Assembly (NCBI GenBank): GCA_963836185.1
Contig: CAWIIQ010000004.1
Location: forward strand, 64,001 to 128,000
Direction of reading: 5' to 3'
DNA from: Candidatus Krumholzibacteriia bacterium
Lineage (GTDB): Bacteria; Krumholzibacteriota; Krumholzibacteriia; Krumholzibacteriales; Krumholzibacteriaceae
DNA: 64,000 nt
Shown here: piece by piece, positions 29,444-56,915 of the stretch
Layout of the letters: each line of letters begins with the position of its first letter
Position numbering within the stretch: position 1 is the stretch's first letter
Made by a program: the position numbers and the translations under genes
The notes under the pieces: model-generated
Databases searched by the model: none
The model's input: only the letters and a program-made list of their open reading frames with translations
Told to the model about the DNA's origin: nothing

Positions 29444-29536
29444 AATGACCTCCTGGTGGAATTGTTTTATATTGGTGATGTGTCTTATAACATCATGAGG
29501 GGCCGGGTTCAAGAGACAAAGCGGCCCCACCGGGAC

Positions 29537-29578
29537 AAAAATAGTAAGGGCAGCGCTTAAGTTCAAGCACTACCCTTA
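29537..29578 (-). terminator. Intrinsic terminator after the M56 gene
   Basis: Minus-strand 14-bp stem taagggtagtgctt/aagcgctgccctta (2 G-U pairs), then ctattttt. Confidence 0.7.
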
Positions 29579-36358: not shown

Positions 36359-36940
36359 ATGCCCAAGCTCGTCATAATCATTATAAGCGCTGTCCTGGTA
36401 AACAATTTTGTCCTGATGAGATTTCTCGGGATCTGCCCCTTCCTCGGGGTATCCAAAAGGGTCTCTACGGCGGCAGGCATGAGCGGGGCTGTGCTGTTCG
36501 TGATGACGATGGCCTCAGTGGTCACATGGCTTATCTATCATTACGTCCTCGTTCCGTTCGGCCTGACATACCTTCAGACAGTCAGTTTTATCCTCGTAAT
36601 AGCCAGTCTCGTACAGCTTGTCGAGCTCGTACTTCAGAAACTCAGTCCGGCCCTGTACAAGGCGCTGGGAATATTCCTGCCCCTGATCACTACCAACTGC
36701 GCCGTTCTCGGAGTTTCCGTTCTCAATATCCAGAAGGAATTCACCCTGATCGAGACGACCCTCTTCGGCGTTGGCGCCGCGATCGGATTCGGGGTCGCGA
36801 TGATCCTCTTCTCGGGACTGAGAGAGAGGATAGAGCTCTGCGATACGCCGATCCCGTTCAGGGGAACGGCCATCGGCCTTGTCACAGCCGGGCTGCTCTC
36901 CCTCGCGTTCATGGGATTTACCGGGCTGGTCAAGCTTTAG
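36359..36940 (+). CDS. rnfA: Rnf complex subunit A
   Basis: VNNFVLMRFLGICPFLGVS, LPLITTNCAVLG. Confidence 0.95.
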   Translation: MPKLVIIIISAVLVNNFVLMRFLGICPFLGVSKRVSTAAGMSGAVLFVMTMASVVTWLIYHYVLVPFGLTYLQTVSFILVIASLVQLVELVLQKLSPALYKALGIFLPLITTNCAVLGVSVLNIQKEFTLIETTLFGVGAAIGFGVAMILFSGLRERIELCDTPIPFRGTAIGLVTAGLLSLAFMGFTGLVKL

Positions 36941-36995
36941 GCCGGCCGCGATCCGGATAGAAATAGAAACGATTCTGCGGAGGAAGTAAAAAAAG

Positions 36996-37832
36996 ATGAT
37001 CACTGCTGTTATCGCACTTGCGGCTCTCGCTCTCCTGGCCGCTTTCGGTCTGGCCATCGCGGCGCGGGTCTTCGCCGTTCCGACCAATCCGAAAGCGGAA
37101 GAGATCGAGGAAGCTCTTCCCGGCGCCAATTGCGGCGCGTGCGCTCTTCCAGGATGCTCCGAGCTTGCCAGGCGGATCGCCGAAGGGAAGGCCGACGTCG
37201 ATGCCTGCCCGGTCGGGGGCGAGCCGGTGGCCCTCGCCATCGCCGATATCATGGGCATCGAGTTCGAAGGCGGAGCCGACAGGGAAGTGGCGCTGGTCCT
37301 CTGCAAAGGGAGCGACCAGGTCGCGGCAAAGCGTTTTTTCTACAACGGAGTGTATGACTGCAACTCGGCCGCACTCGTCTTCGGCGGTGACAAGGCCTGT
37401 ACTTACGGCTGCCTCGGCCTTGGTACGTGCGCCGGTGTATGCCCCTTCGGCGCGATAGAGATGCTGCCGGGCGGACTTGCCAGCGTCGATCCCGAGAAAT
37501 GCACGGGATGCACGAAATGCGTTTCGGCCTGTCCCAAGGGGATCATCAAGATGGTCCCGGCGAAGAGGAATCTGCATATACTCTGCAGCTCGCACGACAA
37601 GGGAGGAGCGGCGAGGAAGCACTGCAAGGTCGCCTGTATCGGCTGCATGAAGTGCGTAAAGGCCGCGCCAGAAGGCGCGATAAACATGGATAATTTCCTC
37701 GCTGTCGTCGATTACGGATTTGAGATCCCGGCCGAGGTCGCAGCGGAATGTCCGATGAACACGATAGTCGTTATCGGGGAGGCTGCCGCCGCGGGTGAAC
37801 AACCAGTGGCAGCGGCGGGAGGTGATGCGTAA
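36996..37832 (+). CDS. rnfB: Rnf complex subunit B (polyferredoxin)
   Basis: LPGANCGAC, GCLGLGTC, CTGCTKC, CIGCMKC. Confidence 0.95.
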   Translation: MITAVIALAALALLAAFGLAIAARVFAVPTNPKAEEIEEALPGANCGACALPGCSELARRIAEGKADVDACPVGGEPVALAIADIMGIEFEGGADREVALVLCKGSDQVAAKRFFYNGVYDCNSAALVFGGDKACTYGCLGLGTCAGVCPFGAIEMLPGGLASVDPEKCTGCTKCVSACPKGIIKMVPAKRNLHILCSSHDKGGAARKHCKVACIGCMKCVKAAPEGAINMDNFLAVVDYGFEIPAEVAAECPMNTIVVIGEAAAAGEQPVAAAGGDA

Positions 37833-39157
37833 TGGGAAGCGGCAAGTTCTTCGGAGGCGTTCATCCATCGTATAACAAGGGACTGGCCGACTCGCGCGCT
37901 GTAGTCGAGATGCCTCTTCCAGAAAAGCTCGTAGTCTTCTTCGCCCAGAACCTAGGCGCTCCCTCGCAGCCCGTCGTCAAGAAGGGCGACGAGGTGAAGA
38001 AGGGGCAGGTCATCGCCGAGTCGGGAGGATTCGTCTCGACACCGGTCCATGCCCCGACATCGGGAACAATAGATTCGATAGGTGTGCATCCGTCGCCTGT
38101 CGGCGTCGACGCGCCCGCCGCGGTGATCATTCCAGATGGAAAAGACGAGTGGTGCGAGGGGTGCGGAGTCGAGAGGTCGAGCGGAGACCTCGATGCCGAG
38201 AAGATAAAAGAGATCATCCATGACAACGGGATCGTTGGTATGGGGGGAGCGACATTCCCGACTCACGTGAAGCTCTCGCCTCCCGCCGGGAAGCTGATGG
38301 ATACCCTTATAATAAACGGCGCCGAATGCGAGCCCTACCTGACCGCCGATCACAGGCTGATGGTCGAACATGCCGAGGGGATCCTCGACGGCGCGGCCCT
38401 TTTCGCCGCGGTGATCGGGGTCGGGAAGGTCATTATCGCGATAGAGAAGAACAAGCCCGACGCCATAGAAGTGATGCGCAAGGCCGTCGGCGGCCGCACG
38501 GGCTTCAGCGTCGAGGCGATGGATGTGATATATCCGCAGGGAGCGGAGAAGCAGCTGATATACGCTATAACGAAGAGGAAGGTGCCTGCCGGCGGGCTGC
38601 CGATGGATGTCGGCGTCCTCGTGCAGAACGTGGGGACGGCCCTGGCCGCCTACGATGCCGTACGGTTCAACAGGCCCCTGATCGAGCGCGTCGTCACCGT
38701 TACAGGAAGTGGGATAAAGGAACCGAAGAACGTTCTCGCGCGGGTGGGGACGAGGTTCGAGGACCTCGTCGAGTTCTGCGGCGGACTCGAGGGCGGCGCG
38801 GCCAAATGCATAAACGGCGGGCCGATGATGGGCGTGGCTCAGTACTCGCTCGAAGCCGCTGTCACGAAGGGCACGAGCGGGCTCGTGATCCTCAGGCAGG
38901 AAGAGGTAGCGCAGTTCGTCAGCGACGCGTGCATCAGGTGCGCTCGCTGCCTCGATGCCTGCCCGATGCGGCTTAATCCTTCGGCCCTCTCGATATTCAC
39001 GGAGAAGATGAGGTTCGAGGATACCAGCGAATATAACGTCATGGACTGCATAGAATGCGGCTGCTGCGCCTATGTGTGCCCGTCGAGAAGACCGATGGTG
39101 CATCATTTCAGAAGGGCGAAGGCCGAGGTAAGGAAACTGCAGAGAAAAGCCGGCTGA
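37832..39157 (+). CDS. rnfC: Rnf complex subunit C
   Basis: GIVGMGGATFPTH, NGAECEPYLTAD, CIRCARC, CIECGCC. Confidence 0.95.
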   Translation: MGSGKFFGGVHPSYNKGLADSRAVVEMPLPEKLVVFFAQNLGAPSQPVVKKGDEVKKGQVIAESGGFVSTPVHAPTSGTIDSIGVHPSPVGVDAPAAVIIPDGKDEWCEGCGVERSSGDLDAEKIKEIIHDNGIVGMGGATFPTHVKLSPPAGKLMDTLIINGAECEPYLTADHRLMVEHAEGILDGAALFAAVIGVGKVIIAIEKNKPDAIEVMRKAVGGRTGFSVEAMDVIYPQGAEKQLIYAITKRKVPAGGLPMDVGVLVQNVGTALAAYDAVRFNRPLIERVVTVTGSGIKEPKNVLARVGTRFEDLVEFCGGLEGGAAKCINGGPMMGVAQYSLEAAVTKGTSGLVILRQEEVAQFVSDACIRCARCLDACPMRLNPSALSIFTEKMRFEDTSEYNVMDCIECGCCAYVCPSRRPMVHHFRRAKAEVRKLQRKAG

Positions 39158-39186
39158 TGACCGGCCGATGAGACCTGGAGGTCCCT

Positions 39187-40269
39187 TTGGAAGAGAATAT
39201 GGAAGGAAAAAAACCCGAGGAGAAGCCGGCGGCTGCTCCCGCGCCCAAGCCGAAGCCGAAGAAGGCAGAGGTCGGGCCGAGATTCGTCGTAAGCTCCTCA
39301 CCTCACATGCACGACGGCCGTACCGTGGCGCAGATCATGAGGCTCGTGATCATCGCGCTCGCGCCGGCCGCGCTCTTCTCGATCTATATCTTCGGCCTCG
39401 ACGCGTTGAGGGTGATCGTGATCTCGATCGCATCCGCGATGATCTTCGAAGCGATATCCCAGAAGGTCATGAAGAGGCCCATAACACTTCGTGAAGGCAG
39501 TGCCGCTCTTACCGGGCTGCTGCTGGCGATGAACCTGCCTTCGACCTCGCCGTGGTGGCTGATAGTCGTCGGCAACCTCTTCGCCATAGTCATAGCGAAA
39601 CAGCTCTACGGCGGGCTGGGATACAATCCCTTCAACCCGGCGCTCGTCGGCCGTGTAGTCCTGCTGATCTCGTTTCCCGTCCATATGACAGCGAGGTGGG
39701 TGACCAATTCGAGGTTCGGAACCGATGCCGTGACCACGGCGACCCCACTGACCCAGATGAAAGAAAGCCTCGCGACGCTCGGTCATATCGATATTGCCTT
39801 CGGAAAGGAACAGGTCTTCGATCTGCTGATCGGCAACAGGGCCGGCTGTCTCGGTGAGACATCGATAGTGCTGCTTGCCCTCGGCGGGCTCTTCCTGATC
39901 TGGAAGAGGGTCATTTCATGGCGTATACCGGTATTGTTCATCGGCGCAGTCTGGGCGATGACCGGCATTTTCCATCTGATAGATCCGACGCACTATGCCG
40001 ATCCATCATTTCACGTTATTACAGGCGGGCTCTTTCTCGGCGCGATATTCATGGCGACCGATTACGTGACCAGCCCCGTGACAAAAAAAGGAATGCTTAT
40101 ATTCGGAGCCGGATGCGGCATCATCACGGTATTGATAAGGCTCTGGGGCGCGTATCCCGAGGGAGTGAGCTTCGCGATACTGCTCATGAACGCGGCGACG
40201 CCCCTTATAGACAGGTATACGAAGCCCAAGGTATTCGGTGCGGTTGATACAAAGAAAGCCGCGGCGTAG
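39187..40269 (+). CDS. rnfD: Rnf complex subunit D
   Basis: SSSPH, GGLGYNPFNPALVGR, DAVTTATPL, MATDYVTSP. Confidence 0.95.
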   Translation: MEENMEGKKPEEKPAAAPAPKPKPKKAEVGPRFVVSSSPHMHDGRTVAQIMRLVIIALAPAALFSIYIFGLDALRVIVISIASAMIFEAISQKVMKRPITLREGSAALTGLLLAMNLPSTSPWWLIVVGNLFAIVIAKQLYGGLGYNPFNPALVGRVVLLISFPVHMTARWVTNSRFGTDAVTTATPLTQMKESLATLGHIDIAFGKEQVFDLLIGNRAGCLGETSIVLLALGGLFLIWKRVISWRIPVLFIGAVWAMTGIFHLIDPTHYADPSFHVITGGLFLGAIFMATDYVTSPVTKKGMLIFGAGCGIITVLIRLWGAYPEGVSFAILLMNAATPLIDRYTKPKVFGAVDTKKAAA

Positions 40270-40285
40270 TGGAGGTTATCAAGGT

Positions 40286-40945
40286 ATGAAAGAGATTATA
40301 CGGTTGTGTTTCGTCCTCACCCTGATCGCCGCGGTTTCGGCGGGCGTATTGGCGTACGTCAACGAAAAGACAGCCGAGCCGATCGCGAAAGCCCTTCTCG
40401 AAGAGAAGATGAGCGCTGTCCGCAGCGTCCTGCCGCCTTATGACAATGAGCCTGACAAGGACATGATCACGATCGGTCTGGCCGACGGAGATTCACTCGA
40501 GGTCTATCGAGGACGTAAAGACGGAGCCGTCACCGGAGCGGCATTCGCGATCACATCTCCCGACGGTTATTCCGGGGACATCGAGTTTATGATCGGCGTA
40601 GACGGGGAAGGCGTGATGCAGGGGCTGATGGTGCTGAATCATCTCGAGACGCCCGGTCTGGGAGCCAAGATCGAAACAGACGCTTTCAGGGGCCAGTACA
40701 AGGGCAAGAGCCTCGAGAATCCCGAGCTCTGGGAGGTCACAAAGGACGGCGGGACATTCGTTCCCATCACCGGAGCGACCATATCGTCGCGGGCCATAAC
40801 GAGGGCCGCGGCGAAGGGACTGAAGCTCTTCGAGGAACATAAGGCCGAGATCTTCGAGTCCGCGGCCGGACAGGGTAATACCGAAACGGGAGTGGATTCC
40901 GCTACAGTCGAGGAAGACGAAGTGGATGGGGAGGTGCAGCAGTGA
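40286..40945 (+). CDS. rnfG: Rnf complex subunit G
   Basis: DGYSG, HLETPGLG, ITGATISS flavinylation site. Confidence 0.93.
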   Translation: MKEIIRLCFVLTLIAAVSAGVLAYVNEKTAEPIAKALLEEKMSAVRSVLPPYDNEPDKDMITIGLADGDSLEVYRGRKDGAVTGAAFAITSPDGYSGDIEFMIGVDGEGVMQGLMVLNHLETPGLGAKIETDAFRGQYKGKSLENPELWEVTKDGGTFVPITGATISSRAITRAAAKGLKLFEEHKAEIFESAAGQGNTETGVDSATVEEDEVDGEVQQ

Positions 40946-41643
40946 AGGCATGGGATGAGTTCATAAAGGGATTCTGGAGTGAGAACCCGATATTCAGGCT
41001 GGTGCTCGGTCTCTGCCCGACCCTGGCCGTCACGACCTCGGCCGAGAACGGCCTCGGGATGGGGCTCGCATCGACATTCGTGCTCGTCTGCTCGAACCTC
41101 GTGATCTCTTCGATAAGGAAGTTTATCCCCAAGAAGGTACGTATCCCCGCGTATATCGTCACTATCGCGACCTTCGTCACGATAGTCGATCTCGTGATGA
41201 ACGGATACTTTCACGCCCTGCACAAGAGCCTGGGGCTGTTCATACCTCTGATCGTGGTCAACTGCATCATCCTCGGCAGGGCGGAAGCGTTCGCCTCGAA
41301 GAACCCTGTATGGGTATCGATCATTGATGGATTCGGTATGGGGTTCGGGTTCACGATCTCACTGATCGTGCTCGGAGCGATCAGGGAGATCATCGGGAAC
41401 GGCACGATCTTCAACATCTCGATATTCGGTGACGGCTACCTGCCGCTGCTCCTGATGATCCTGCCTCCAGGCGCCTTTATCGTACTCGGCATACTGCTCG
41501 GCCTGATGAACAAGGCAGAGATAGCGCTGGCCGAAAAGAGCGGGCGGCAGCCGATCATCCGCAAGGAGCATGACTGCGCGAGCTGCGCGATCCACACCAA
41601 GTGGTTCGACTTCTCCGCGAAAGAAGAGTCTGTTTCCGAGTAG
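40942..41643 (+). CDS. rnfE: Rnf complex subunit E
   Basis: ENPIFRLVLGLCPTLAVT, IVVNCIILGRAEAFA, LPPGAF. Confidence 0.95.
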   Translation: MKAWDEFIKGFWSENPIFRLVLGLCPTLAVTTSAENGLGMGLASTFVLVCSNLVISSIRKFIPKKVRIPAYIVTIATFVTIVDLVMNGYFHALHKSLGLFIPLIVVNCIILGRAEAFASKNPVWVSIIDGFGMGFGFTISLIVLGAIREIIGNGTIFNISIFGDGYLPLLLMILPPGAFIVLGILLGLMNKAEIALAEKSGRQPIIRKEHDCASCAIHTKWFDFSAKEESVSE

Positions 41644-42779: not shown

Positions 42780-43791
42780 TCAGTCGAACAGTTCGATTTT
42801 TCCGCCGAAGTTTCCTGCAAACTCGAAGACATCGCCTGGAAGGGCGAAAACAGCCCTTACGCCTGGGGCGTCTTCACCGATACTCATTCCTTCTTCCGGC
42901 CCGAGAACGAACAGGCCGGTCGAGAGGGCATCTGACTCTGTTGCCGATGGAGCTATGACTGTTACTCCGAGTACATGATCGACGGTCTGGCCCGTGCGAG
43001 GATCGACGATATGCCCGTATTTTTTCCCGTCGATGACGACGAAGTTCTCATACTGCCCTGACGTGGCTACTGCCTCGTTACTTATCAGAAGCTTTCCTAT
43101 GATGCCGGACGGGTCCTCCGGGTCACGTATCCCGATAGACCATGCTTCCCGACCCGGAGGCGTTCCGATAGCGAACATGTTCCCGCCTAGATCGACCAGG
43201 GCGCTTTCCGCTCCATGATCCCTGAGAATAGCGACGCATCGGTCGACTGCGTATCCCTTGCCTATGCCTGCGAGGTCTATCGTCGCTCCTCCATGCAATG
43301 CGATCGAGGTATCCGCGGCGTTGAACACGATCTTCCGCCAGCCGACCTTCAGGAGGGCACCAAAGATCTCCTGACGCGACGGCAGTTTCGGTTCGCCTCC
43401 CTGGAATCCCCACAGCTTTACTACCGGCCGCGCGGTGACGTCGAATGCTCCTCCTGTCATCCTGCTGAATGAAACCGCCTTGTTGAGCAGCAGGAAGAGT
43501 TCCCGCGATACCTTGACCGGCTTGTTCTGCGCGTCACGGTTGAGCTCGCGAGATCTCGCTGTCCTCTTTCCACGTGCTCATGACCTCTTCGATGCGGTGC
43601 ATCTCGCGGACAGCAGACGCCGCTGCGGTTTCCGACTCTTCGTCAGTAAGCCCGTAGATCGTTATAGTCCCCCTCGTGCCCATCACGAAGGTCTGCTTGA
43701 CGAACGGCTCCTGCTCAGACGCGCAGGAGGGGAGGCCCGCCAGGCTTAACAGAAGAAGAAAGAGCACATGGAGAATACTGGTCATTTTCAT
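42780..43791 (-). CDS. apbE: FAD:protein FMN transferase; frameshift ~43545
   Basis: Lipobox LPSC, MGT, GAFDVT, DLAGIGKGYAVD, ATSGQYE, HIVDPRTG. Confidence 0.92.
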
Positions 43792-43792
43792 A

Positions 43793-45064
43793 TCAATATC
43801 CCGGCTTTCCGAGAAGGTTGAACATCCTCGTCTTGTATTCCTCGACACCGGGCTGGTCGAACGGATTTACTCCGATCAGCCTTCCAGACACGGCGATCGC
43901 CAGCTCGAAGAAGATGAACAGGGATCCTATCGCCGCCGGATCGATATGCTCGAGTTCCAGGGTCATCACGGGCAGTCCTCCTGCCATGTGCGCCGCCTTC
44001 GTCCCCTCGTATGCCTTGCGGTTGACCTCGGACAGAGATCTTCCCGCGATGTAATTTAGCCCGTCGAGATCCTCGCTGTCCATCGGGATCTCGATGTCCC
44101 TGTTAGGCCGGGCCGAGATGAGGAATGTCTCGAGGATCTTCCGCGAACCCTCCTGAAGAAGCTGGCCGAGTGAATGAAGATCGGTGGTCATTACTGTAGA
44201 GGAGGGATAGAGCCCCTTGCCTTCCTTTCCCTCCGACTCACCGGCGAGCTGTTTCCACCACTCGCATACCCACGACAGTTCGGGGTGGAAGGTGGAAAGG
44301 ACCTCTATCTCGATACCCCTGCCGTGCAGGAGCGCCCTGGAAAGGGCGTATCTCAGGGCTTCGTTGCCATGTTCCTCCCTCGTCCAACGATTCAGGCCGC
44401 TGCATGCTCCACTGACAATTTCACCGACCGGAATACCGGCAGCCGCGAACGGAAGGAGACCTACAGGGGAGAGGACGCTGAACCTTCCGCCCACATCGTG
44501 CGATATCGGGAATATCTTCCAGCCCTCGGTGCCTGCCATCTGCCGTAGGGCTCCCTTGACGGGATCGGTTATCGCGACGATCCTTTCATTGCATCCTGAA
44601 CGCCCGCAATCCTCGATCAGGCGGTTTCGGAGAAGCCTGAAAGCGACGGCCGGCTCGGTCGTAGTCCCCGATTTCGAGATGGCGCATATCGAGAAACGTT
44701 TCCCCTCGAGATAGTCAAGAAGGTCGGCATGGTATTCGGGAGAGAGCGAGTTCCCCGCGAAAAGTACGGGGAAGGGAGCGTGATTCTTGAGCGCCTCGAT
44801 GCCTGCTCTGGCGCCGAGGTATGAACCCCCGATGCCGACTACGACGAGGCAGTCGCTCTGGTCCTGGATCCGTTTACCTACGTCCTGGATCTCCTCGACA
44901 TCCCGGGGTGGAAGGCATGGGAGGGCAAGCCAGCCGAGCATGTCGGATCCAGCGCCCTCGCCCTTAATAAGAGAGCCCAGGGCCTCCATGGCCCCGGGCA
45001 TCCCGTTATTCAGATCGTCTTCAGTCAGGTGGGGAGCGAGTGTCCCCGTATCGAGAGTCAGCAA
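43793..45064 (-). CDS. pgi: Glucose-6-phosphate isomerase
   Basis: GIGGSYLG, SKSGTTTEP, DVGGRFSVLSPVG, NPFDQPGVEEYK. Confidence 0.95.
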   Translation of the reverse strand: MLTLDTGTLAPHLTEDDLNNGMPGAMEALGSLIKGEGAGSDMLGWLALPCLPPRDVEEIQDVGKRIQDQSDCLVVVGIGGSYLGARAGIEALKNHAPFPVLFAGNSLSPEYHADLLDYLEGKRFSICAISKSGTTTEPAVAFRLLRNRLIEDCGRSGCNERIVAITDPVKGALRQMAGTEGWKIFPISHDVGGRFSVLSPVGLLPFAAAGIPVGEIVSGACSGLNRWTREEHGNEALRYALSRALLHGRGIEIEVLSTFHPELSWVCEWWKQLAGESEGKEGKGLYPSSTVMTTDLHSLGQLLQEGSRKILETFLISARPNRDIEIPMDSEDLDGLNYIAGRSLSEVNRKAYEGTKAAHMAGGLPVMTLELEHIDPAAIGSLFIFFELAIAVSGRLIGVNPFDQPGVEEYKTRMFNLLGKPGY

Positions 45065-45078
45065 TTCAGATCTCCTTA

Positions 45079-46752
45079 TTAAGCATCCTCCAGGGCCTTT
45101 TCGACGAGACTTACCGTCTCTTCGGTATGTTTTACCACCTCGGCCCTGATCGCGCCCGCTTCCTTCGATATCTCGGCCTTGAATTTCTCGTCCTCGATGC
45201 CTGGGAGATTGATGATGACGTTAAGGTAGGCGCCTTCAGCCGCAGTACGCGCTGTCAGCGCAGCTACCCCCGCGTCACTCGATGAATTTGTGTTGCCCTT
45301 CTCGGCTACGATACGGGCCAGCCCTGCCGCTTCCTTCGTGCGTCTCAGGACGTTCATCGGGATGAGCGTCGCCTGCTTCGTGGTCTCCTCGATCGCCTCA
45401 GCCCTGGCAGCCTTCTGCTCGTCAGTCTTCTTTTTCATCCGCATCGCGTCCATGACCCTGTTGAATGCGTCTGTATCACGGTCGACGTCGGCAAGGAACT
45501 CGATCTTGAGCTTCTGCGCCTCGACTCCGACCCGCTCCATCTCGTCGAACGCCTCCTCGTAACCCTTCTTGCCGTGTGTAAGGGCCCCGACCATTGCCGA
45601 AAGAGCGCCGCTGAGGGCCCCGCATAACGCGGCGACGCTGCCGCCTCCCGGAGCCGGAGCGTCTGTCGAGAGGACGTCCGTGAAATGAGTCGCCGTCATT
45701 CCTACGAGGCTGTCATCGCGCCTCATGAAATACTCGATGATCTTCTTGTCCGGCTCGAACTCGTAGAGATCGCCGAGTCCCAGCGAGAGGATCGCTGAAT
45801 GAACGAGCTCCGAGTCGGGAACGCCAGTCGTCTTGCCCATCTTCTTGAGGTAGTGCCTGCCCGATTCGAGGAAAGCCTCGAGGGGGATCAGCCCGACGAG
45901 TTCGCTCCCCGTGACGCGCGCGCCCTGCTCGGCAGCTATCCGCTCACACTCGTCGAATACGAGGTGGGGAGGAGTGATCTTGTAGTTGGTCAGGTTGATC
46001 GATACCTGCGCCCTCCCGAAATCCTCCATGTACCATCCGACCGCCTTACATTCCTTGAAGATGCCCGGCTCCCTGACGGTCTTTCCATCTTTATCGCGGA
46101 AGAGCTTGTTATCCTTGTCCCGTTTCAGTCTCCCCTTCTCGCGAATCGTGAATGCGATCTCCCTGGCGACCTTCGTGTCACGTGTATTGAGGTTGACGTT
46201 ATAAGCGATGAGAAACTCTCTTGCGCCGATCACGGTCGCTCCCGCGCCGGCATTGAACTCGGCGGGCCCGAAATCGGGTTTCCACTGGGGATCGGCGAGC
46301 TTCGCCTCGAGGCCCTCATATTCACCCGCGCGGATATTGGCGAGGTTCTGCCTCTCCGGCGTAGCGGCGGCGTACTCGTAGAGGTAGACGGGGATGCCCA
46401 GCTCATCGCCGACCCGAGCACCAAGCTTCCGGGCCAGATCTGCGCAGTCGTCCATCGTCATGCCGCTGACGGGGATGAAGGGGCATACATCGGTGGCGCC
46501 CATCCTCGCGTGCTCGCCGCTGTGTTTAGACATGTCGATCACCTCGGCGGCCTTGCGGATCGCCCTGAACGCCGCCTCGACGACCTCGTCGGGAGTCCCG
46601 AGGATCGTAACGACCGTCCTGTTGGTGTCTTTGCCCGGGTCCACGTCGAGGAGCCTGACGCCCTCCACGCCCTTTATCTCACCTGTGATCTCATCGATTT
46701 TGGCCAGATCGCGGCCTTCGCTGAAGTTGGGTACGCACTCTACGAGTCTCAT
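45079..46752 (-). CDS. ftcD: Glutamate formimidoyltransferase / formiminotetrahydrofolate cyclodeaminase
   Basis: ECVPNFSEGR, HARMGATDVCPF, APGGGSVAA. Confidence 0.95.
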   Translation of the reverse strand: MRLVECVPNFSEGRDLAKIDEITGEIKGVEGVRLLDVDPGKDTNRTVVTILGTPDEVVEAAFRAIRKAAEVIDMSKHSGEHARMGATDVCPFIPVSGMTMDDCADLARKLGARVGDELGIPVYLYEYAAATPERQNLANIRAGEYEGLEAKLADPQWKPDFGPAEFNAGAGATVIGAREFLIAYNVNLNTRDTKVAREIAFTIREKGRLKRDKDNKLFRDKDGKTVREPGIFKECKAVGWYMEDFGRAQVSINLTNYKITPPHLVFDECERIAAEQGARVTGSELVGLIPLEAFLESGRHYLKKMGKTTGVPDSELVHSAILSLGLGDLYEFEPDKKIIEYFMRRDDSLVGMTATHFTDVLSTDAPAPGGGSVAALCGALSGALSAMVGALTHGKKGYEEAFDEMERVGVEAQKLKIEFLADVDRDTDAFNRVMDAMRMKKKTDEQKAARAEAIEETTKQATLIPMNVLRRTKEAAGLARIVAEKGNTNSSSDAGVAALTARTAAEGAYLNVIINLPGIEDEKFKAEISKEAGAIRAEVVKHTEETVSLVEKALEDA

Positions 46753-46848
46753 CGGGACTGTCACTCTCCTTGTCTTGATTGTAGATATCTGGCAATATGT
46801 CAGAAGGATATACACGGTCAGCCCGCAGGTCAAGCACAGAGGGGCTTT

Positions 46849-47619
46849 ATGAGATTCTACCTCAGCGTACCGTTGAGCAGGTTCGACGATATGTTCGATG
46901 ATGTCATAAAGGCCGGGTTCTGTCCCGAGGTCAGGATGACGAAGGCTGACTACCTCGCGAAGACGCCGATGTCGAGATTCGCCGAGATGAGGGATCTGCT
47001 GGAGAAGCGTTCGCTCAGGACTTTCACCCACGGTCCATTCTTCGGCCTCGATGTCGCCAGTCTCGATATCTGCCTCTCCGAGTACTCCGTCGACTGCCTC
47101 AATATCGGGCTGGAAGCGACTGCTGCGCTGGGCGGCAGCGTCATGGTGATGCATACCGGCTATCTTCCCCAGTTCTCACGGGGCGGGCGCAGGCACTGGC
47201 TGAGAAACTGGGCCGAGCGGATGCCGAAGATAGTCGAGCATGCTGAAAAGCTCGGGGTGACCCTGGCTCTCGAAAATACCTGGGACGACCGCCCGGAGAT
47301 AATGCTGCACCTGGCGGACATGCTCCCCGGCGACAATGTGAGGTTCTGCCTCGATACGGGACACGTCAACGCCTTCTCGCATCTGGGGATCAGCAGGTGG
47401 TGGGACATGATGGGAGATCGCGTAGTCGCGATGCACCTGCACGACAACGACGGCATATCCGACGATCACCTGGCCCCCGGTGAGGGGATCTTCGATTTCG
47501 AGACGCTGGCCGGGAAGCTAAACTGCCTCGAGACGATGCCTCTGCTCGATCTCGAGGTCGATCTGCCGAGGGCCCCGCGCGGCAGGGAATACCTTGAGAC
47601 CCTGCTTGCCGTTCTTTAA
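46849..47619 (+). CDS. Sugar phosphate isomerase/epimerase (AP-endonuclease-2 TIM barrel)
   Basis: HGPF, LENT, CLDTGH, HLHDNDG.SDDHLAPGEG. Confidence 0.88.
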   Translation: MRFYLSVPLSRFDDMFDDVIKAGFCPEVRMTKADYLAKTPMSRFAEMRDLLEKRSLRTFTHGPFFGLDVASLDICLSEYSVDCLNIGLEATAALGGSVMVMHTGYLPQFSRGGRRHWLRNWAERMPKIVEHAEKLGVTLALENTWDDRPEIMLHLADMLPGDNVRFCLDTGHVNAFSHLGISRWWDMMGDRVVAMHLHDNDGISDDHLAPGEGIFDFETLAGKLNCLETMPLLDLEVDLPRAPRGREYLETLLAVL

Positions 47620-51583: not shown

Positions 51584-51958
51584 ATGAATGAAAAGGAAGT
51601 GCTTCTCGGTACCTTCGAAAGACTCCGCAAGGCGCTGTTCGATTGTGATGTCAGCAGCCTGCGGGAGTTGATAGCCGGGGATTACATCGGATACGACCCG
51701 CTGGGGAATCCGCAGGACCTTGCGATGACTCTTGAAGCTTATCAACCGGGAGGCGCGCGGCTCGACAGGTACGATGTCGAGGACGTGGATGTGAGGATCA
51801 TGGGGGAAGTCGGGATCATGACCGGGAAAGGGTACATCCACGGAACGTTCGGGGATGCTGAATTCGAGCATGATCTGCGTTTCCTGGATCTGTATGTCAT
51901 GCGGGATGGTTCCTGGAGACTCTTTCTCTCCCAGGTCACCCCTCTGGTATCGGTATGA
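51584..51958 (+). CDS. NTF2-like (DUF4440) protein
   Basis: DVSSLRELIAGDY, VRIMGEVG, DLYVMRDGSWRL. Confidence 0.82.
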   Translation: MNEKEVLLGTFERLRKALFDCDVSSLRELIAGDYIGYDPLGNPQDLAMTLEAYQPGGARLDRYDVEDVDVRIMGEVGIMTGKGYIHGTFGDAEFEHDLRFLDLYVMRDGSWRLFLSQVTPLVSV

Positions 51959-52380
51959 ACAGTCCCGACAGAATAAGTAAAGAAGGGCTGGAAAGACTTC
52001 TTTCGCTGATCCCGGAACTTGAGGATCACGAGGGCTCGTTCGGCGAACATGATTTTACGGAAGAGGGGAACACCCTGCATATCGGACCGTTCAACTACTC
52101 GCCGTTGCTGGGAGAGATCATGTCGGGAATCCATGAAGCCGGACTGCGCTTTCCATTCGACTGGCCTTCCTGGCAGGATGAGGCTGAGCGGATATATGAT
52201 GAACCTGGTGAGCTCGAGAAAGCCGATCTCGAGACAATAAGGAAACTGCTGACCCTTCATCTGAGGAAAGAGCGGTTCTGTGAAGGACACCTCGCCGCCA
52301 TATGTGAGAGCGGACTGATGTTGTCAACTCTGCGGAGACTTAAGGCGCTTTGGGACGAAGGAGCGATCGAGGCCGTCTGA
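51955..52380 (+). CDS. DUF6508-like protein
   Basis: FDWPSW, LRKERFCEGHL motif. Confidence 0.75.
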   Translation: MNSPDRISKEGLERLLSLIPELEDHEGSFGEHDFTEEGNTLHIGPFNYSPLLGEIMSGIHEAGLRFPFDWPSWQDEAERIYDEPGELEKADLETIRKLLTLHLRKERFCEGHLAAICESGLMLSTLRRLKALWDEGAIEAV

Positions 52381-52516: not shown

Positions 52517-53491
52517 ATGGAAGCATCAGAAAAGCAGCAGAGCCCGAAACCGGTTAAAAAAAAGCCGCTGATCAAATGGCAGCGGCCAAATGTCCACGTG
52601 ATGTACGCGCTGGCGCCGGCAGCAGCAGCGTCGATCTACTTTTTCGGTTGGCGAAGCCTGCTCATGCTCTCTGTAGTCTGTGTTGCCGGATTCCTGACAG
52701 AATACTTCTACCTCAAGGCGACATACAGGGAGCCGGTATCATCGGCCGTCTTCGTTTCATCTTTCCTCCTCGCGTTGAGTCTTCCCCCGACGATCCCGAT
52801 CTGGATGGCCGTTGTAGGGATCGTGTTCGGGATTATGTTCGGCAAGATGGTCTTCGGCGGGTTCGGCCGTAACATCTTCAATCCCGCGCTCGTCGGAAGA
52901 GCATTCATATACATAAGTTTCGGGGGCCCCATGACTGCTGCCTGGGTGAATCATGTCAGCGGAGGAGCGGGCGGATTCGCTCGTTATTCGGCCGATGCGG
53001 TGACACAGGCTACTCCCCTGGCACAGCTCAGCGAGGGGCTACCCGTTTCGAAGATCTCGATGCTGATCGGAAATGAAGCGGGATGTATCGGTGAGACGAG
53101 CGCGATCCTTCTCCTGCTGGGAGGGATATACATCGTCTACAAGAAATTCGCGAACTGGCGCATCGTGCTTTCGATCTTCATCAGCATGCTCGCTCTGCAG
53201 ACGGCGCTCTGGCTCGCAGGCGCCGGTAATGCCCTCGATCCTCTCAGCGCGGTGATAGGCGGCGGATTCATGATGGGCGCCTGGTTCATGGCGACCGATC
53301 CTGTGTCGGCCTCACAGACAAATGGCGGCAGGTGGATCTACGGCATTCTCATCGGTGCCCTGACAGTGCTGATACGTACCTTCTCTATCTGGGCGGAAGG
53401 CATGATGTTCGCCATACTCCTCGGAAATATGTTCTCTCCTATAGTCGACTATTATATCAAAGAGGCAAGGAAGAAGGGGGCGGCGGCATGA
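52517..53491 (+). CDS. nqrB: NqrB/RnfD-family subunit (short, 324 aa)
   Basis: FGKMVFGGFGRNIFNPALVGR, DAVTQATPL, GCIGETS, FMATDPVS. Confidence 0.85.
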   Translation: MEASEKQQSPKPVKKKPLIKWQRPNVHVMYALAPAAAASIYFFGWRSLLMLSVVCVAGFLTEYFYLKATYREPVSSAVFVSSFLLALSLPPTIPIWMAVVGIVFGIMFGKMVFGGFGRNIFNPALVGRAFIYISFGGPMTAAWVNHVSGGAGGFARYSADAVTQATPLAQLSEGLPVSKISMLIGNEAGCIGETSAILLLLGGIYIVYKKFANWRIVLSIFISMLALQTALWLAGAGNALDPLSAVIGGGFMMGAWFMATDPVSASQTNGGRWIYGILIGALTVLIRTFSIWAEGMMFAILLGNMFSPIVDYYIKEARKKGAAA

Positions 53492-54108
53492 AGAAGGAAT
53501 CCTTTATGAAGAAGAGGATCTACCCTGTAGCCTTCATGCTGCTCGTTACCGTCGTATTTATCTCGGTCACCACGGTCATCTACACATTCACTAAAGATAC
53601 GATCAAGCTCAACGAGAGGCTCAGGCTGAAGCAAGCAGTGCTTTACGCGGGAGGTGTCGGTCTTTCCAGTGATCCTGCCGGGATAGAGAAGGCGTTCGAC
53701 GATCGCGTCGAAGAGGTAAAAGACAGTACGGGGAGGGTGAGGTACTACGCGATACGTGGAGAGGGAACAGCCGATATTGAAAGTTACGTAGTCATCCAGA
53801 CAGGCGCCGGCCTGTGGGGAGAGATCACGGCAGGCGTGGGATTCGATCGCGATCTTGAGACTTTCAGGAGGCTCGAGATCATCGACCAGAACGAGACGCC
53901 GGGTCTCGGCGGCAGGATCGACGAGACATGGTTCAAGGAGCAGTTTATGGGGAAGCGGCCTCCTTTGTCTTCGGTGCCCGAAGGCGATCCTGCTTCGGAT
54001 AACGAGTTCCAGGCTATCACCGGCGCATCCTATTCTACCGAGGCCATACAGACCATCGTGAACTCGGCTCGTGAATACGCGCGAACGGAGATACAAGGCG
54101 CAGAATGA
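53488..54108 (+). CDS. nqrC: NqrC/RnfG-family FMN-binding subunit
   Basis: GAGLWGEI, ETPGLGGRI, ITGAS. Confidence 0.85.
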   Translation: MKKESFMKKRIYPVAFMLLVTVVFISVTTVIYTFTKDTIKLNERLRLKQAVLYAGGVGLSSDPAGIEKAFDDRVEEVKDSTGRVRYYAIRGEGTADIESYVVIQTGAGLWGEITAGVGFDRDLETFRRLEIIDQNETPGLGGRIDETWFKEQFMGKRPPLSSVPEGDPASDNEFQAITGASYSTEAIQTIVNSAREYARTEIQGAE

Positions 54109-54722
54109 AAACTTTTAAGGTCAAAAAGGTGTTCCTCGAGGATCTCGGTGTAAACAACCCTGTGTTTATACAGGTACTCGGTATCTGCTCGACCCTCGCG
54201 GTGACGAACGTGCTGAAGAACACGGTCGTCATGTCTGTCGGGCTGATCTTCGTGACGGCTCTGTCGAATGTGACGGTATCCCTGCTCAGGAACGTGATGC
54301 CCTCACGGATACGCATGATGGTCGAGACCCTGATAATCGCATCGTACGTGATCATCGTCGATATTGTGCTGAAGGCGTATATGCCGGAAGTATCCCGTCA
54401 GCTCGGGCCGTATGTAGGGCTTATCATCACGAACTGCATCATCATGGGAAGGGCGGAGGCTTTTGCCCTGTCCAATCCCCCAGGCCTGTCCTTTATCGAC
54501 GGTGTCGCCTCAGCTATAGGCTATTCCTACGTGCTCATCGCCATCGCGATCATCAGGGAACTGATGGGATCGGGTTCGATCTGGGGCTATCACGTACTCG
54601 GGGACTGGTGGACAAACTGGTCGATCATGGTAATGGCGCCCGGGGCCTTCTTTACGCTCGCCATATTCATCTGGGTCGTCAAAGGGATAATGTACAAGCG
54701 GGAGGAGGGAAAGAGCTCATGA
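54105..54722 (+). CDS. nqrD: NqrD subunit
   Basis: NNPVFIQVLGICSTLAVT, VGLIITNCIIMGRAEAFA. Confidence 0.9.
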   Translation: MKTFKVKKVFLEDLGVNNPVFIQVLGICSTLAVTNVLKNTVVMSVGLIFVTALSNVTVSLLRNVMPSRIRMMVETLIIASYVIIVDIVLKAYMPEVSRQLGPYVGLIITNCIIMGRAEAFALSNPPGLSFIDGVASAIGYSYVLIAIAIIRELMGSGSIWGYHVLGDWWTNWSIMVMAPGAFFTLAIFIWVVKGIMYKREEGKSS

Positions 54723-55312
54723 GTGAGGGACTGGCGTTCTACGCGATATTCTTCGCGGCGATATTTACCAATAATATCCTGCTGACGAATTACCTCGGCA
54801 TGTGTTCTTTTCTCGCTGTCTCGAGGGAAGTAGACACTTCTGTCGGCCTGGGCTGGGCCGTCGTGTTCGTCATGACGGCGACGAGCGCCCTGAATTGGCT
54901 CGCCTATCACTATATTCTCGTTCCGTTCGACCTGACCTATCTGAGATTTGTAGTTTTCATCGTCATCATCGCCGCTTTCGTGCAGATAGTAGAGATGATA
55001 ATCGAAAGGGTCTCGGACAAGCTGTACATCGCGCTCGGTATATTTCTCCCGCTGATAACCGTTAACTGCGCCATTCTCGGAGTGAGCCTGTTCATGGTCA
55101 TCAGGGAATACACATTCATCAATTCCGTCTTTTTCGGACTGGGAAGCGGAATAGGGTGGATGGTCGCGATCATAGCGATGGCCGGGATCAGGCAGAAGAT
55201 GGCCCGTTCACGTGTTCCCAGGGCGCTGGCCGGGGCCGGCATTGCGCTTATCATCGCGGGTATAATGGCGCTGGCATTCATGGGCTTTTCGGGCATGATC
55301 AAGATCACCTGA
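54719..55312 (+). CDS. nqrE: NqrE subunit
   Basis: YLGMCSFLAVS, LPLITVNCAILG, MALAFMGFSG. Confidence 0.9.
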   Translation: MSEGLAFYAIFFAAIFTNNILLTNYLGMCSFLAVSREVDTSVGLGWAVVFVMTATSALNWLAYHYILVPFDLTYLRFVVFIVIIAAFVQIVEMIIERVSDKLYIALGIFLPLITVNCAILGVSLFMVIREYTFINSVFFGLGSGIGWMVAIIAMAGIRQKMARSRVPRALAGAGIALIIAGIMALAFMGFSGMIKIT

Positions 55313-55328
55313 GAGGAATCTGAAACCC

Positions 55329-56438
55329 TTGTCTCCATTAGCACAGATATTGATCGGTGTCGGCGCGATCAGCGCTATCACGACATTGCTTGCCGTGATC
55401 ATGGTGATCGCCGACGCTACGATCGGCAACTACGGCAGCGTACAGATCAAGATCAACGATGAGAAGGACGTAACAGTGGAAGGCGGCCGGTCGCTTCTTT
55501 CGTCGCTCATGGATGAGAAGATCTTTATCCCGTCAGCCTGCGGCGGTCGCGGCTCGTGCGGTCTGTGCAAGGTCAAGGTCACATCCGACGTAGGGGAGCA
55601 TCTGCCCACCGAACTGCCCTGGCTCGACGAAGATGAGAGGAAAGATAACGTCCGGCTCTCCTGCCAGCTGAAGATCAAGAAAGACGCCTCGATCCAGATA
55701 CCCGCAGAGCTTTTCAACGTCAAGGAATTCAAGTGTGAGGTCAAATCTATAGTCGATCTGACCCACGATATCAAGGAGATTACCCTGCAGCTCCTGGAGC
55801 CCGACAGAATGACATTCAAGGCCGGACAGTTCATCCAGTTCGAGGTCCCCGAGTATGAACTTACTTCCGAGCCTGTATACAGGGCGTACTCGATATCGTC
55901 CCAGCCCTCACGTACCGATGAGATCGAGCTCGAGATCCGCCTTGTCCCGAGTGGGATCTGCACCACCTATGTATTCGAACATCTGAAGGTTGGGGACACG
56001 GTCACCATCAACGGACCGTACGGACACTTCTACCTGCAGGACACCGACGCGAAGATTATTTTTGTCGCCGGAGGTACGGGAAACGCGCCGATCAAGTCGA
56101 TACTCAACGATATGCTCGAGAAGGACAACCAGCGCGAGGCGGTTTATTTCTTCGGCGCCAGATCGAAATGCGACCTCTTCCTTGTCGATGAGATGAGGGA
56201 GATGGAGAAGAAACTCCCGAATTTCAAATATATACCCACACTTTCCCAGCCGCAGCCCGAGGATAACTGGGAGGGGGATGTCGGCCGTGTCACGGACGCG
56301 ATAGAGCGTCACATAGAATCCGGGGAAAACACCGAGGCATACCTCTGTGGAAGCCCCGGCATGATCGAGTCGGTCGTGGAGGTACTTAAGAAAAAGGGAA
56401 TACCTGAAGACAAGATTTATTACGACAAGTTCGCGTGA
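55329..56438 (+). CDS. nqrF: NqrF-like membrane-anchored 2Fe-2S/FAD/NAD oxidoreductase
   Basis: N-terminal TM, SACGGRGSCGLC, RLSCQ, RAYSIS, AGGTGNAP, YLCGSPGM, YDKF. Confidence 0.88.
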   Translation: MSPLAQILIGVGAISAITTLLAVIMVIADATIGNYGSVQIKINDEKDVTVEGGRSLLSSLMDEKIFIPSACGGRGSCGLCKVKVTSDVGEHLPTELPWLDEDERKDNVRLSCQLKIKKDASIQIPAELFNVKEFKCEVKSIVDLTHDIKEITLQLLEPDRMTFKAGQFIQFEVPEYELTSEPVYRAYSISSQPSRTDEIELEIRLVPSGICTTYVFEHLKVGDTVTINGPYGHFYLQDTDAKIIFVAGGTGNAPIKSILNDMLEKDNQREAVYFFGARSKCDLFLVDEMREMEKKLPNFKYIPTLSQPQPEDNWEGDVGRVTDAIERHIESGENTEAYLCGSPGMIESVVEVLKKKGIPEDKIYYDKFA

Positions 56439-56444
56439 GGTAGG

Positions 56445-56915
56445 ATGATGAAGCAGACTGAGCAGATGAAAGAGATCCAGGAGAGGATGAAGCCGGGTAT
56501 TATTGCATTGGATGGATTCCTCGGTCCGGATGACCGGAACCTCATCGATATACTTGTTGAAGACGACGCCGAGGTAAAGCGGCTGGGACTGACCCATGAA
56601 AATATAGCGGCGAGGATGCAGGAACTTCGGGATGCGGGTAAGGGTGGCCTCGGGGACCTGATCAGTATCGCTCCGCACTACGAAGTAAGTGTCGATATCG
56701 CCAGGGGCAAGCTGCCGTGCCCGTTCGGTCACAGAGGGCTTGTCCGGAAATCGATTATCCGGGTCAAGAACCTCGAGAAAGACCGGGAGCTTACATTTAC
56801 TGATATGAACATCCATATGATAAAAGAGCATGGTTTCTACCAGGGGAAGGGATCATCTTTCAGGATGGATATCGGCGATCTTATTGATATTCTGGATATC
56901 GAGCTGCCCGGATAA
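56445..56915 (+). CDS. Hypothetical soluble protein in the nqr-like operon
   Basis: 6 bp after the nqrF stop with RBS gaggt; GFLG, LPCPFGH, HMIKEHGFYQG. Confidence 0.8.
   Translation: MMKQTEQMKEIQERMKPGIIALDGFLGPDDRNLIDILVEDDAEVKRLGLTHENIAARMQELRDAGKGGLGDLISIAPHYEVSVDIARGKLPCPFGHRGLVRKSIIRVKNLEKDRELTFTDMNIHMIKEHGFYQGKGSSFRMDIGDLIDILDIELPG

Follow-up and report, generated by a model that had tools for sequence, protein, structure and literature searches.

A six-gene operon from a Candidatus Krumholzibacteriia bacterium may encode a Na+-pumping NADH:rubredoxin oxidoreductase, in which five Nqr-type subunits (NqrBCDEF) are joined by a small protein, Orf6, acting as adaptor. We give this reading a probability of about 0.5. 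The operon lies in a 64,000-nt stretch of DNA (the window; assembly GCA_963836185.1, contig CAWIIQ010000004.1, positions 64,001–128,000). More tentatively, such complexes would constitute a third Rnf/NQR branch through which quinone-free anaerobes of many phyla respire via O2 and peroxide detoxification, with Orf6 as a docking protein of as yet unsolved fold in the place of NqrA. If this is true, a third output joins NAD+ and quinone for Rnf/NQR cores, and transient oxygen exposure could yield energy to many strict anaerobes whose annotation is that of fermenters.

As the first-pass annotation had anticipated, similar operons are already on record: nqrA-less nqrBCDEF clusters are described, in the excerpts available of the respective papers, for Thermotoga thermarum (Theth_1137–1141) and T. 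lettingae in 2014 (PMC4148951), for Clostridium ultunense (CUESP_0375–0379) in 2018 (PMC5924567) and for Ca. Izimaplasma ZiA1 (PMC6256511). Those excerpts give the second substrate or acceptor as unknown (PMC4148951, PMC5924567), with a guess by Manzoor 2018 that it is more negative than quinone (PMC5924567), and contain no mention of a sixth gene or a rubredoxin link. The BCDEF order, the missing nqrA and the separate Rnf of the published group, as described there, all recur in this genome; we tentatively equate these clusters with the clade studied here from their gene order and from the Thermotogota and Tissierellia members in our tree. The five-gene layout is thus already published, and what rubredoxin adjacency and fusions contribute is a specific candidate for the acceptor.

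An Nqr-like operon without NqrA

The relevant features of the window are:
36359..41643, + strand: rnfABCDGE, separate complete operon, 10.9 kb upstream of nqrBCDEF
42780..43800, − strand: apbE flavin transferase (PF02424)
52517..53491, + strand: nqrB, 324 aa, ATG start, NqrB/RnfD-family membrane subunit (PF03116)
53488..54108, + strand: nqrC, 206 aa, NqrC/RnfG-family FMN carrier (PF04205)
54105..54722, + strand: nqrD, 205 aa, over the PRK09292 cut-off
54719..55312, + strand: nqrE, 197 aa, scored by nqrE and rnfA profiles
55329..56438, + strand: nqrF, 369 aa, TTG start, over the TIGR01941 cut-off
56445/56448..56915, + strand: orf6, 156/155 aa, predicted soluble, without a Pfam family

The first-pass annotation had described a five-gene Nqr-type operon, and its genes and motifs are in place (GAGLW in NqrC, GICSTLAVT in NqrD, GMCSFLAVS in NqrE), as are the complete Rnf operon that it put about 11 kb away and the gap of exactly 136 bp between nqrB and the preceding DUF6508 gene (51955–52380; PF20118). 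Reading frames are intact and start and stop codons are coupled: nqrC starts within the nqrB stop (ATGA), and orf6 begins 6 nt past nqrF with GAGG upstream of its start. A scan for promoters and terminators at the operon gave signal no better than shuffled sequence. The genome is 92.5% complete with several apparent frameshifts, and the sole apbE found in it is split over two frames here, probably because of an indel in the assembly. Its product is needed by both the Rnf and the Nqr-like complex.

The proposed absence of nqrA was borne out genome-wide, at 92.5% completeness: neither the TIGR01936 and PF05896 profiles nor tblastn with two canonical NqrA proteins found an NqrA. Across 80 related loci, NqrA or RnfC never precedes nqrB (67 loci have at least 1.5 kb of upstream sequence), showing that the layout is not due to chance, and RnfB and RnfC are absent from within the operon. 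NqrA exceeds its cut-off in 4 of 50 genomes carrying the operon, and each of the six NqrA-like loci retrieved is followed by its own long NqrB; genomes G033 and G043 have a canonical-type nqrA operon in addition to the A-less one. Of 80 carrier genomes, 73 score above the RnfC cut-off and the other seven are drafts; RnfC is present in all six closed carrier chromosomes and all 14 genomes that lack orf6. Apart from the genes discussed below, neighbours on either side are not conserved (57 first-neighbour proteins scanned). Cultured carriers include Fervidobacterium islandicum and Ilyobacter polytropus, both with orf6.

Compared with Vibrio cholerae NqrABCDEF (PDB 7XK3, 8A1T), the five subunits are homologous, in like order and with cofactor ligands kept, but the window complex lacks NqrA, its B, C and F subunits are shorter by about 90, 50 and 40 aa, B is without the amphipathic quinone helices, and there is an extra gene without a family assignment. 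With Rnf (RnfABCDGE; PDB 7ZC6, 9ERI, 8AHX) it shares the transmembrane core, an RnfD-sized B and an RnfG-sized C, but RnfB and RnfC are missing from the operon, NqrF provides the input, and D and E group with Nqr.

Cofactor sites and the quinone site

NqrF (NCBIfam TIGR01941, 318 against a cut-off of 295) and NqrD (PRK09292, 247 against 235, although below the TIGR01939 cut-off) score as Nqr; NqrE reaches 236 with nqrE (cut-off 247.6) and 230 with rnfA (cut-off 229.3); and NqrB exceeds only the rnfD model TIGR01946 (260 against 207), scoring 215 with nqrB against a required 350. The predicted make-up of NqrF holds: one transmembrane helix is followed by a [2Fe-2S] ferredoxin domain, an FAD domain and an NAD(P)H domain, without insertions present in canonical NqrF (406–424 aa), and its closest PDB match is V. 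cholerae NqrF (E 2.7e-71).

Judged from alignments, the NQR wire has kept all of its cofactor sites, from the FAD and [2Fe-2S] sites of NqrF through the Cys residues of NqrD and NqrE and the flavinylation motifs of NqrC and NqrB to the riboflavin Asp of NqrB. The four Cys of NqrF are invariant in 69 of 69 rows; Cys28 and Cys111 of NqrD (the membrane [2Fe-2S] site), and both [2Fe-2S] Cys and Glu at query position 91 of NqrE, are invariant in 79 of 79. The flavinylation motif of NqrC is TGAS here and [T/S]GA[T/S] in the family (Thr in 64 and Ser in 12 of 76 rows). Alignment of NqrB to 7xk3_B and 9lrr_B identifies T166 (the FMN Thr; Thr/Ser in all 79 family rows), D261 (the riboflavin-site Asp, Vibrio D346; Asp/Glu in all 79) and D311 (Vibrio D397).

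The quinone site is less complete. In canonical enzymes N-terminal residues of NqrB build quinone helices (PMC10643135). Ahead of the first conserved Met, NqrB of this family has a median of 13 residues (range 7–28, n = 46) against 56–66 in six canonical NqrB, and the amphipathic helices AH-I and AH-II are missing in 46 of 46 curated rows. Anchoring the alignment on an invariant Glu assigns Vibrio G140 to G58 of the window protein (Gly in 46 and Ala in 30 of 79 rows) and G141 to the bulky F59, a position that is also not Gly in three of six canonical rows. Vibrio E157 corresponds to S76. Part of the pocket appears to survive: G140 is kept as Gly or Ala, and at the E157 position 42 of 79 rows have Glu.

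Menaquinone markers are scarce in carriers: MqnA/D in 4 of 50, MenB over cut-off in none, and 46 without any. In the window's own genome, MqnA/D, MqnC and MenB all stay below cut-off; UbiA-family matches exist there. The marker set covers menaquinone pathways, and it can miss, since G033 and G043 have a canonical-type nqrA operon yet neither marker. Because the quinone helices are lost and most carriers lack menaquinone markers, a non-quinone acceptor, raised as a possibility at the outset, is likely.

Rubredoxin genes and fusions

A rubredoxin motif occurs in 10 of 92 family loci. In six it belongs to a directly adjacent gene on the same strand, after orf6 (L001, L077, L115, L117) or before nqrB (L004, L006), in genomes from Spirochaetota, Planctomycetota, a Desulfobacterota sample, Kiritimatiellae and Lentisphaerota; in the four others it lies 2–3.4 kb off, alongside rubrerythrin and desulfoferrodoxin. 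Linkage to such an oxidative-stress regulon could reflect co-regulation and not direct electron transfer. The background is 65 matches over 161 Mb; by this measure the loci of the same 50 carrier genomes should include 0.27 neighbouring rubredoxins and instead include 7, although Poisson figures for this linkage overstate it because the carriers are related. In the closed genome G001 the sole rubredoxin sits right after orf6. An independent Planctomycetota sample picked by orf6 has nqrF directly upstream in all nine new genomes and rubredoxin directly after orf6 in two of the nine (0.012 expected).

Natural fusions of Orf6 to rubredoxin, known here from protein sequences alone, form 22 clusters at 90% identity, 49–78% identical to the fusion P0167 and all with PF00301. 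We left out P0201 and P0260 as apparent chimeric assemblies; P0166 and P0191 are single records. The fusions were found by two homologue searches, but not by the one for longer Orf6 proteins. A model of P0167 (43 rows; pLDDT 90, pTM 0.74) has a linker of low confidence and gives no reliable sign that the two domains pack rigidly, which bears neither way on function.

Rubredoxin is present in 48 of 50 carrier genomes. The window's own genome has rubredoxin, desulfoferrodoxin and a flavodiiron-type protein and gave no match to the NADH:rubredoxin reductase C-terminal domain. Its rubredoxin gene is on another contig (C1:636 kb), away from the operon, and a PF18267 match in 18 of 50 carriers (only carriers were counted) speaks against the rubredoxin reading. 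The retrieved flanks of 82 of the 92 loci, many of them short, contain no rubredoxin, and these include all 14 orf6-less loci. None was found near 20 canonical, Fe-S-NqrA-type and Rnf loci, a sample too small to discriminate.

Orf6

The suspected link of the 156-aa protein to the system holds in the family, where orf6 comes after nqrF at 52 of 66 loci. Its absence from 14 carrier genomes means that any replacement of NqrA by Orf6 cannot be obligatory. In the Bacillota that lack it, the 450–470 aa genes after nqrF were rejected as substitute partners, being RelA/SpoT-like, peptidase or MATE genes. In the window's own phylum the operon is patchy, with a full-length orf6 match in 3 of 151 genomes.

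We predict Orf6 to be an adaptor or accessory subunit. Its conserved residues are G87, C91, P92, K101, H123, H128, F130 and R139; among 117 rows, C91 is kept in 99 (Ser in 15), H123 in 109 and H128 in 112. A Pfam search with 62 members gave no shared family, although the Atlas offers a DUF7919 lead for 13% of one cluster and there is one weak, below-cut-off match in a distant homologue. The structure model (pLDDT 94.7) has no Foldseek match in the PDB at E ≤ 0.001, and the best VIA-align result is Z 2.8 (rmsd 4.1, 67 aligned); the lack of a solved-fold match does not make Orf6 a new fold. Single fusions of Orf6 to a rubrerythrin-like domain and to a nitroreductase also occur.

Proposed mechanism and alternatives

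In the reading that we prefer, NAD(P)H would likely be oxidised at NqrF, and by homology electrons would pass from NADH to FAD and [2Fe-2S] in F, [2Fe-2S] in D/E, FMN in C, and FMN and then riboflavin in B. Na+ export would be coupled to this route, the ion (Na+ or H+) being assumed from homology. Loss of NqrA would uncover a cytoplasmic exit at the riboflavin, where gene context and fusions suggest that rubredoxin takes up electrons, its docking aided by Orf6 on the cytoplasmic face. That one branch of Bacillota has lost Orf6 suggests an accessory role. Reduced rubredoxin would supply rubrerythrin, desulfoferrodoxin and flavodiiron protein, which would allow an anaerobe without quinones to conserve energy as it clears O2, superoxide and peroxide. 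Rnf is driven by roughly 180 mV. The drop from NADH (−320 mV; PMC5924567) to rubredoxin (−67 ± 50 mV; PMC9364112) is about 250 mV, and so above that value. The proposed net reaction is that of NROR, the soluble NAD(P)H:rubredoxin oxidoreductase of the rubredoxin/flavodiiron/rubrerythrin pathway (PMC9364112), but NROR is a flavoprotein that conserves no energy and is not homologous to the window complex.

The same pump might instead reduce another soluble non-quinone acceptor (flavodoxin, an Orf6 metal site formed by Cys91, His123 and His128, or chelated metals), with Orf6 an NqrM-like maturation or assembly factor and rubredoxin merely co-regulated. The strong conservation of those three residues, the position of orf6 after nqrF, where canonical operons carry apbE or nqrM, the many loci without a nearby rubredoxin and the single fusions to other domains would all fit. 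We nevertheless consider it unlikely: the Ser at position 91 in 15 rows would be improbable for an essential redox ligand, an NqrM search of the family loci gave no match, and only the rubredoxin fusion is shown as a multi-member family. It is also quite unlikely that the complex is still an NADH:quinone pump with a pocket remodelled for menaquinone, scavenged quinones or humic shuttles. The retained G140, the partly retained E157, the futalosine genes of four carriers, the two genomes missed by the markers and the sister relationship to canonical Nqr favour such a pump; the loss of AH-I and AH-II in all 46 curated rows and the 46 marker-less carriers oppose it, and G004 and G006, two of the four genomes with a marker, carry a canonical-type nqrAB apart from this operon that could use the quinone.

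Borrowing of RnfC from the rnf operon, docked on NqrB, would turn the complex into an ion-coupled NADH/NADP(H) transhydrogenase that binds nucleotide at both ends. Its appeal lies in the wide occurrence of RnfC among carriers, closed and orf6-less genomes included, in the RnfD-like size and profile score of NqrB, in a search of the own genome that found no PntB, and in Ser306 and Arg320 of the window NqrF, which may resemble residues of NADPH-preferring FNR-family enzymes. Arg320, however, is found in only 19 of 69 NqrF rows, RnfC is common in these anaerobes (the count comes from carriers only) and is missing from seven draft carriers, and NADH to NAD+ would offer no driving force. A PH(V/I)R-like N-terminal segment, presumably the contact to RnfC/NqrA, is present in 12 of 14 subunits partnered by NqrA or RnfC and in only 5 of 79 family rows. 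As RnfC docking also leaves the rubredoxin link unexplained, we find it improbable. Least plausible by far is a decaying Nqr remnant that does not function as a complex; one operon (L069) ends after nqrD and the distribution in the own phylum is patchy, but frames are intact and cofactor ligands invariant over 79 rows from many phyla, and start and stop codons are coupled in the window's operon.

Evolutionary placement

A B+D+E tree (26 rows, LG+G4, bootstrapped; a model that can join long branches) has the order (Rnf,(Fe-S-NqrA type,(canonical Nqr, A-less type))) with support 100/99. The A-less (12 rows) and canonical (6 rows) sequences form separate sister clades, each 100/100, with no nesting of one in the other, and the Rnf rows group by themselves (100/100), although B and E of the A-less type exceed the rnfD and rnfA cut-offs. 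A quick tree has the same topology (SH-aLRT 99). The suggestion that the operon represents an Rnf-to-Nqr intermediate is not favoured by this placement as sister to canonical Nqr, although an AU test did not reject an alternative branching order (p = 0.07).

Given that canonical Nqr is its sister group and that the Fe-S-NqrA type branches off earlier, the A-less type was probably derived by loss of A. NqrA and the N-terminal helices of NqrB were probably lost in this lineage, which leaves the compact NqrF as the one ancestral-looking feature. The Fe-S-NqrA type (L120–L123, from the Desulfobacterota sample) has a compact NqrF of 364–370 aa and a short NqrC, as here; unlike here, it has a long NqrB N-terminus and an A subunit of 487–491 aa with two CxxCxxCxxxCP motifs and an NqrA-type insertion. 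It looks the better candidate for the intermediate, which would recast the A-less form as a derived side branch.

An operon without nqrA, and its genome

The first-pass annotation had placed a five-gene Nqr-type operon followed by an additional gene in the window, and all six genes are present there with intact frames:

52517–53491, + strand, B, NqrB/RnfD family
53488–54108, + strand, C, NqrC
54105–54722, + strand, D, NqrD
54719–55312, + strand, E, NqrE
55329–56438, + strand, F, NqrF
56445–56915, + strand, orf6, sixth gene (155–156-residue soluble protein)

The genes are tightly coupled, with ATGA overlaps at B/C, C/D and D/E. As claimed, 136 bp separate the upstream DUF6508 gene from B, with no nqrA in between. 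In profile searches F scores above the cut-off for nqrF, D above that of one NqrD model but not of a second, and B above that of rnfD alone. The absence of NqrA extends to the whole source genome (3.5 Mb, 92.5% complete), where two HMMs and tblastn found none. The predicted neighbouring rnf operon is complete (36359–41643 in the window, gene order ABCDGE), and tblastn detected no extra copy of it or of the A-less operon in the source genome. The RnfB of this rnf operon has 278 residues and is closest to the Methanosarcina/PRK07118 type.

The only apbE found in this genome (window 42780–43800, − strand) is split over two frames: one covers the signal peptide together with the N-terminal part, the other the remainder. 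Because similar breaks affect rubrerythrin, desulfoferrodoxin, ferritin and two UbiA-family genes, these point to single-base assembly errors and not pseudogenes. Two histidine degradation genes also lie in the window: a 691-residue formiminotransferase-cyclodeaminase whose N terminus is extended by about 135 residues (45079–47154, − strand) and an aromatic amino acid lyase of the histidine-ammonia-lyase family (27962–29566, − strand).

A D-based scan of 6 of the 64 parts of the GTDB collection matched 593 relatives, of which we studied the best 80, a choice biased toward close relatives. These come from the Spirochaetota, Cloacimonadota, Thermotogota, Bacillota, PVC groups, Fusobacteriota and others, and none of the best 80 of 593 loci has NqrA or RnfC ahead of B. 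The A-less operon is a real and conserved family. The lone RnfC-like match at family loci is a pyruvate oxidoreductase. In one locus (L069) the operon ends after D with no E or F following, and that genome carries a divergent orf6 on a separate contig without nqrF. The suspicion that similar operons were already catalogued proved right: the layout is published, for instance in Izimaplasma (PMC6256511). We found no description of the sixth gene or of a rubredoxin link in the open-access literature covered; the evidence on both makes the function of this layout testable.

Cofactor chain and quinone site

The four D/E cysteines are invariant across 79 family rows, the FMN Thr/Ser and riboflavin Asp/Glu of B are kept in 79/79, and the four cluster cysteines of F are retained in 69/69. 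The A-less complex resembles canonical NQR in its input and membrane core, but differs in lacking NqrA and the quinone helices and in forming a separate clade. Only 7–28 residues precede the first conserved Met of B (46 family rows), compared with 56–66 in six canonical proteins. Within the quinone pocket, the G140 position retains Gly/Ala, the G141 position is bulky (non-Gly also in 3/6 canonical rows) and the E157 position is Glu in 42 of 79 family rows.

Among the 50 carriers tested, out of 80 and mostly draft genomes, MqnA/D exceeded the cut-off in 4 and MenB in none; MqnA/D, MenB and MqnC were not found in the source genome. This survey covers menaquinone genes only, and it likewise shows no marker in two genomes that carry an nqrA operon of the canonical type.

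Evolutionary position

Nqr operons whose A subunit bears Fe–S motifs (Fe–S-A type) occur in 5 of 301 genomes of a Desulfobacterota sample. Their A subunit (487–491 residues) keeps both [4Fe-4S] motifs and has an NqrA-type insertion, and they combine a long B N terminus with a compact F. The FMN/NAD region of A is altered in these operons (L120–L123, in G350, G279, G235 and G316, and G383). The cysteine motifs are also retained in a canonical-type NqrA, at locus L114.

Trees of B+D+E, omitting rows without any one of the three genes, give the topology (Rnf,(Fe–S-A type,(canonical Nqr, A-less))) by FastTree (93 rows), in a mixture-model quick tree (46 rows, SH-aLRT 99) and under LG+G4 (26 rows, support 100/99). 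An A/C subunit is present in Rnf, in the Fe–S-A type and in canonical Nqr, so the simpler history would be a loss of A in the A-less branch. The operon had been proposed as a Rnf-to-Nqr intermediate, on the lines of the duplication-plus-reductase origin model for Nqr (PMC4014512, which finds no nqr in Thermotogae). Of the operon's traits only the compact F looks ancestral; the tree favours loss of A over that proposal, although an A-less-first topology is not rejected (AU p = 0.072, with only 3 Fe–S-A, 6 canonical and 5 Rnf rows).

The sixth gene

Among the 66 loci whose downstream flank is long enough, 52 have orf6 after F, one of them only as a 5′ fragment. The other 14 loci belong to 13 Bacillota and one Fusobacteriaceae, and no orf6 was found elsewhere in those genomes; orf6 is therefore accessory. 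In a reverse sample picked by orf6, nqrF lies immediately upstream in 9/9 new genomes. We found no Pfam family for the protein and, for its confidently predicted model (pLDDT 94.7), no match to a solved fold. Across 117 rows it has a conserved Cys/His/His set (Ser replacing Cys in 15), and K101 and R139 are near-invariant. The latter two might fit an acidic partner, for example the rubredoxin of the source genome (net charge −9).

Full-length orf6 occurs in 3 of 151 genomes of its own phylum, all in one genus, and the nearest GTDB relative comes from a spirochaete, which together suggest horizontal gain.

In one closed genome (G073) orf6 lies in two pieces 1.37 Mb apart (C1:366406–366546 and C1:1740848–1741105). 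The 5′ piece follows nqrF and passes into an unrelated secreted protein. The 3′ piece is separated from a rubredoxin 3.4 kb away by feoB, fur and nifU. The orf6-like domain also occurs beyond the 155-residue form (1983 representatives at E ≤ 0.001); the large proteins P0121, P0172, P0222 and P0242, without a Pfam family, carry two to four in tandem.

A link to rubredoxin

Rubredoxin is found at 10 of 92 family loci, directly adjoining the operon in six from several lineages and within 2–3.4 kb, with rubrerythrin and desulfoferrodoxin, in four more. Against a background of 65 rubredoxin matches per 161 Mb (50 carrier genomes), 7 were observed in the loci of these carriers versus 0.27 expected, and 2/9 versus 0.012 expected in the orf6-first sample; kinship inflates both odds. 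Fusions of orf6 to rubredoxin form 22 clusters at 90% identity; in the one modelled, both domains are confident and their mutual packing is not. The source genome encodes its rubredoxin on a different contig from the operon, flanked by two rubrerythrin-like genes, with desulfoferrodoxin and a flavodiiron-type gene elsewhere:

G000:C1:173600–176530, oxygen-defence cluster 1: rubrerythrin (by eye), desulfoferrodoxin, ferritin (by eye), flavodiiron-type
G000:C1:634200–636960, oxygen-defence cluster 2: Fur, SpoIIE-domain protein, rubrerythrin-like, rubredoxin, second rubrerythrin-like

The PF18267 domain of soluble rubredoxin reductase is absent from the source genome and present in 18 of the 50 carriers, the only genomes surveyed.

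Proposed electron path

By homology, NADH would feed electrons into F, from where they would travel via D/E, C and B to a riboflavin near the cytoplasmic face. In Rnf and NQR alike, electron flow in this direction exports Na+ (PMC12174285). With neither quinone helices nor an A/RnfC cap, their exit would require a soluble acceptor. The potential of rubredoxin is −67 ± 50 mV (PMC9364112), so that NADH to rubredoxin would provide about 250 mV, above what Rnf uses. Judging from sequence, we put at roughly 0.5 the probability that the A-less complex passes NADH electrons to rubredoxin with coupled Na+ export.

Against this reading, no rubredoxin is nearby at 82 of the 92 family loci, including every orf6-less locus, and that of the source genome lies on another contig. 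Less probable is an alternative in which orf6 serves in maturation and the electrons go to a different soluble acceptor. The earlier suggestion of a non-quinone acceptor gains from the lost helices and scarce menaquinone markers, but the pocket core is ambiguous and markers can miss; a remodelled quinone site nevertheless seems improbable. We consider it equally doubtful that the complex borrows RnfC from rnf: RnfC is found in 73 of 80 carriers (carriers only) and PntB is absent from the source genome, but few family members retain the PH(V/I)R-like segment and NADH to NAD+ would not be downhill.
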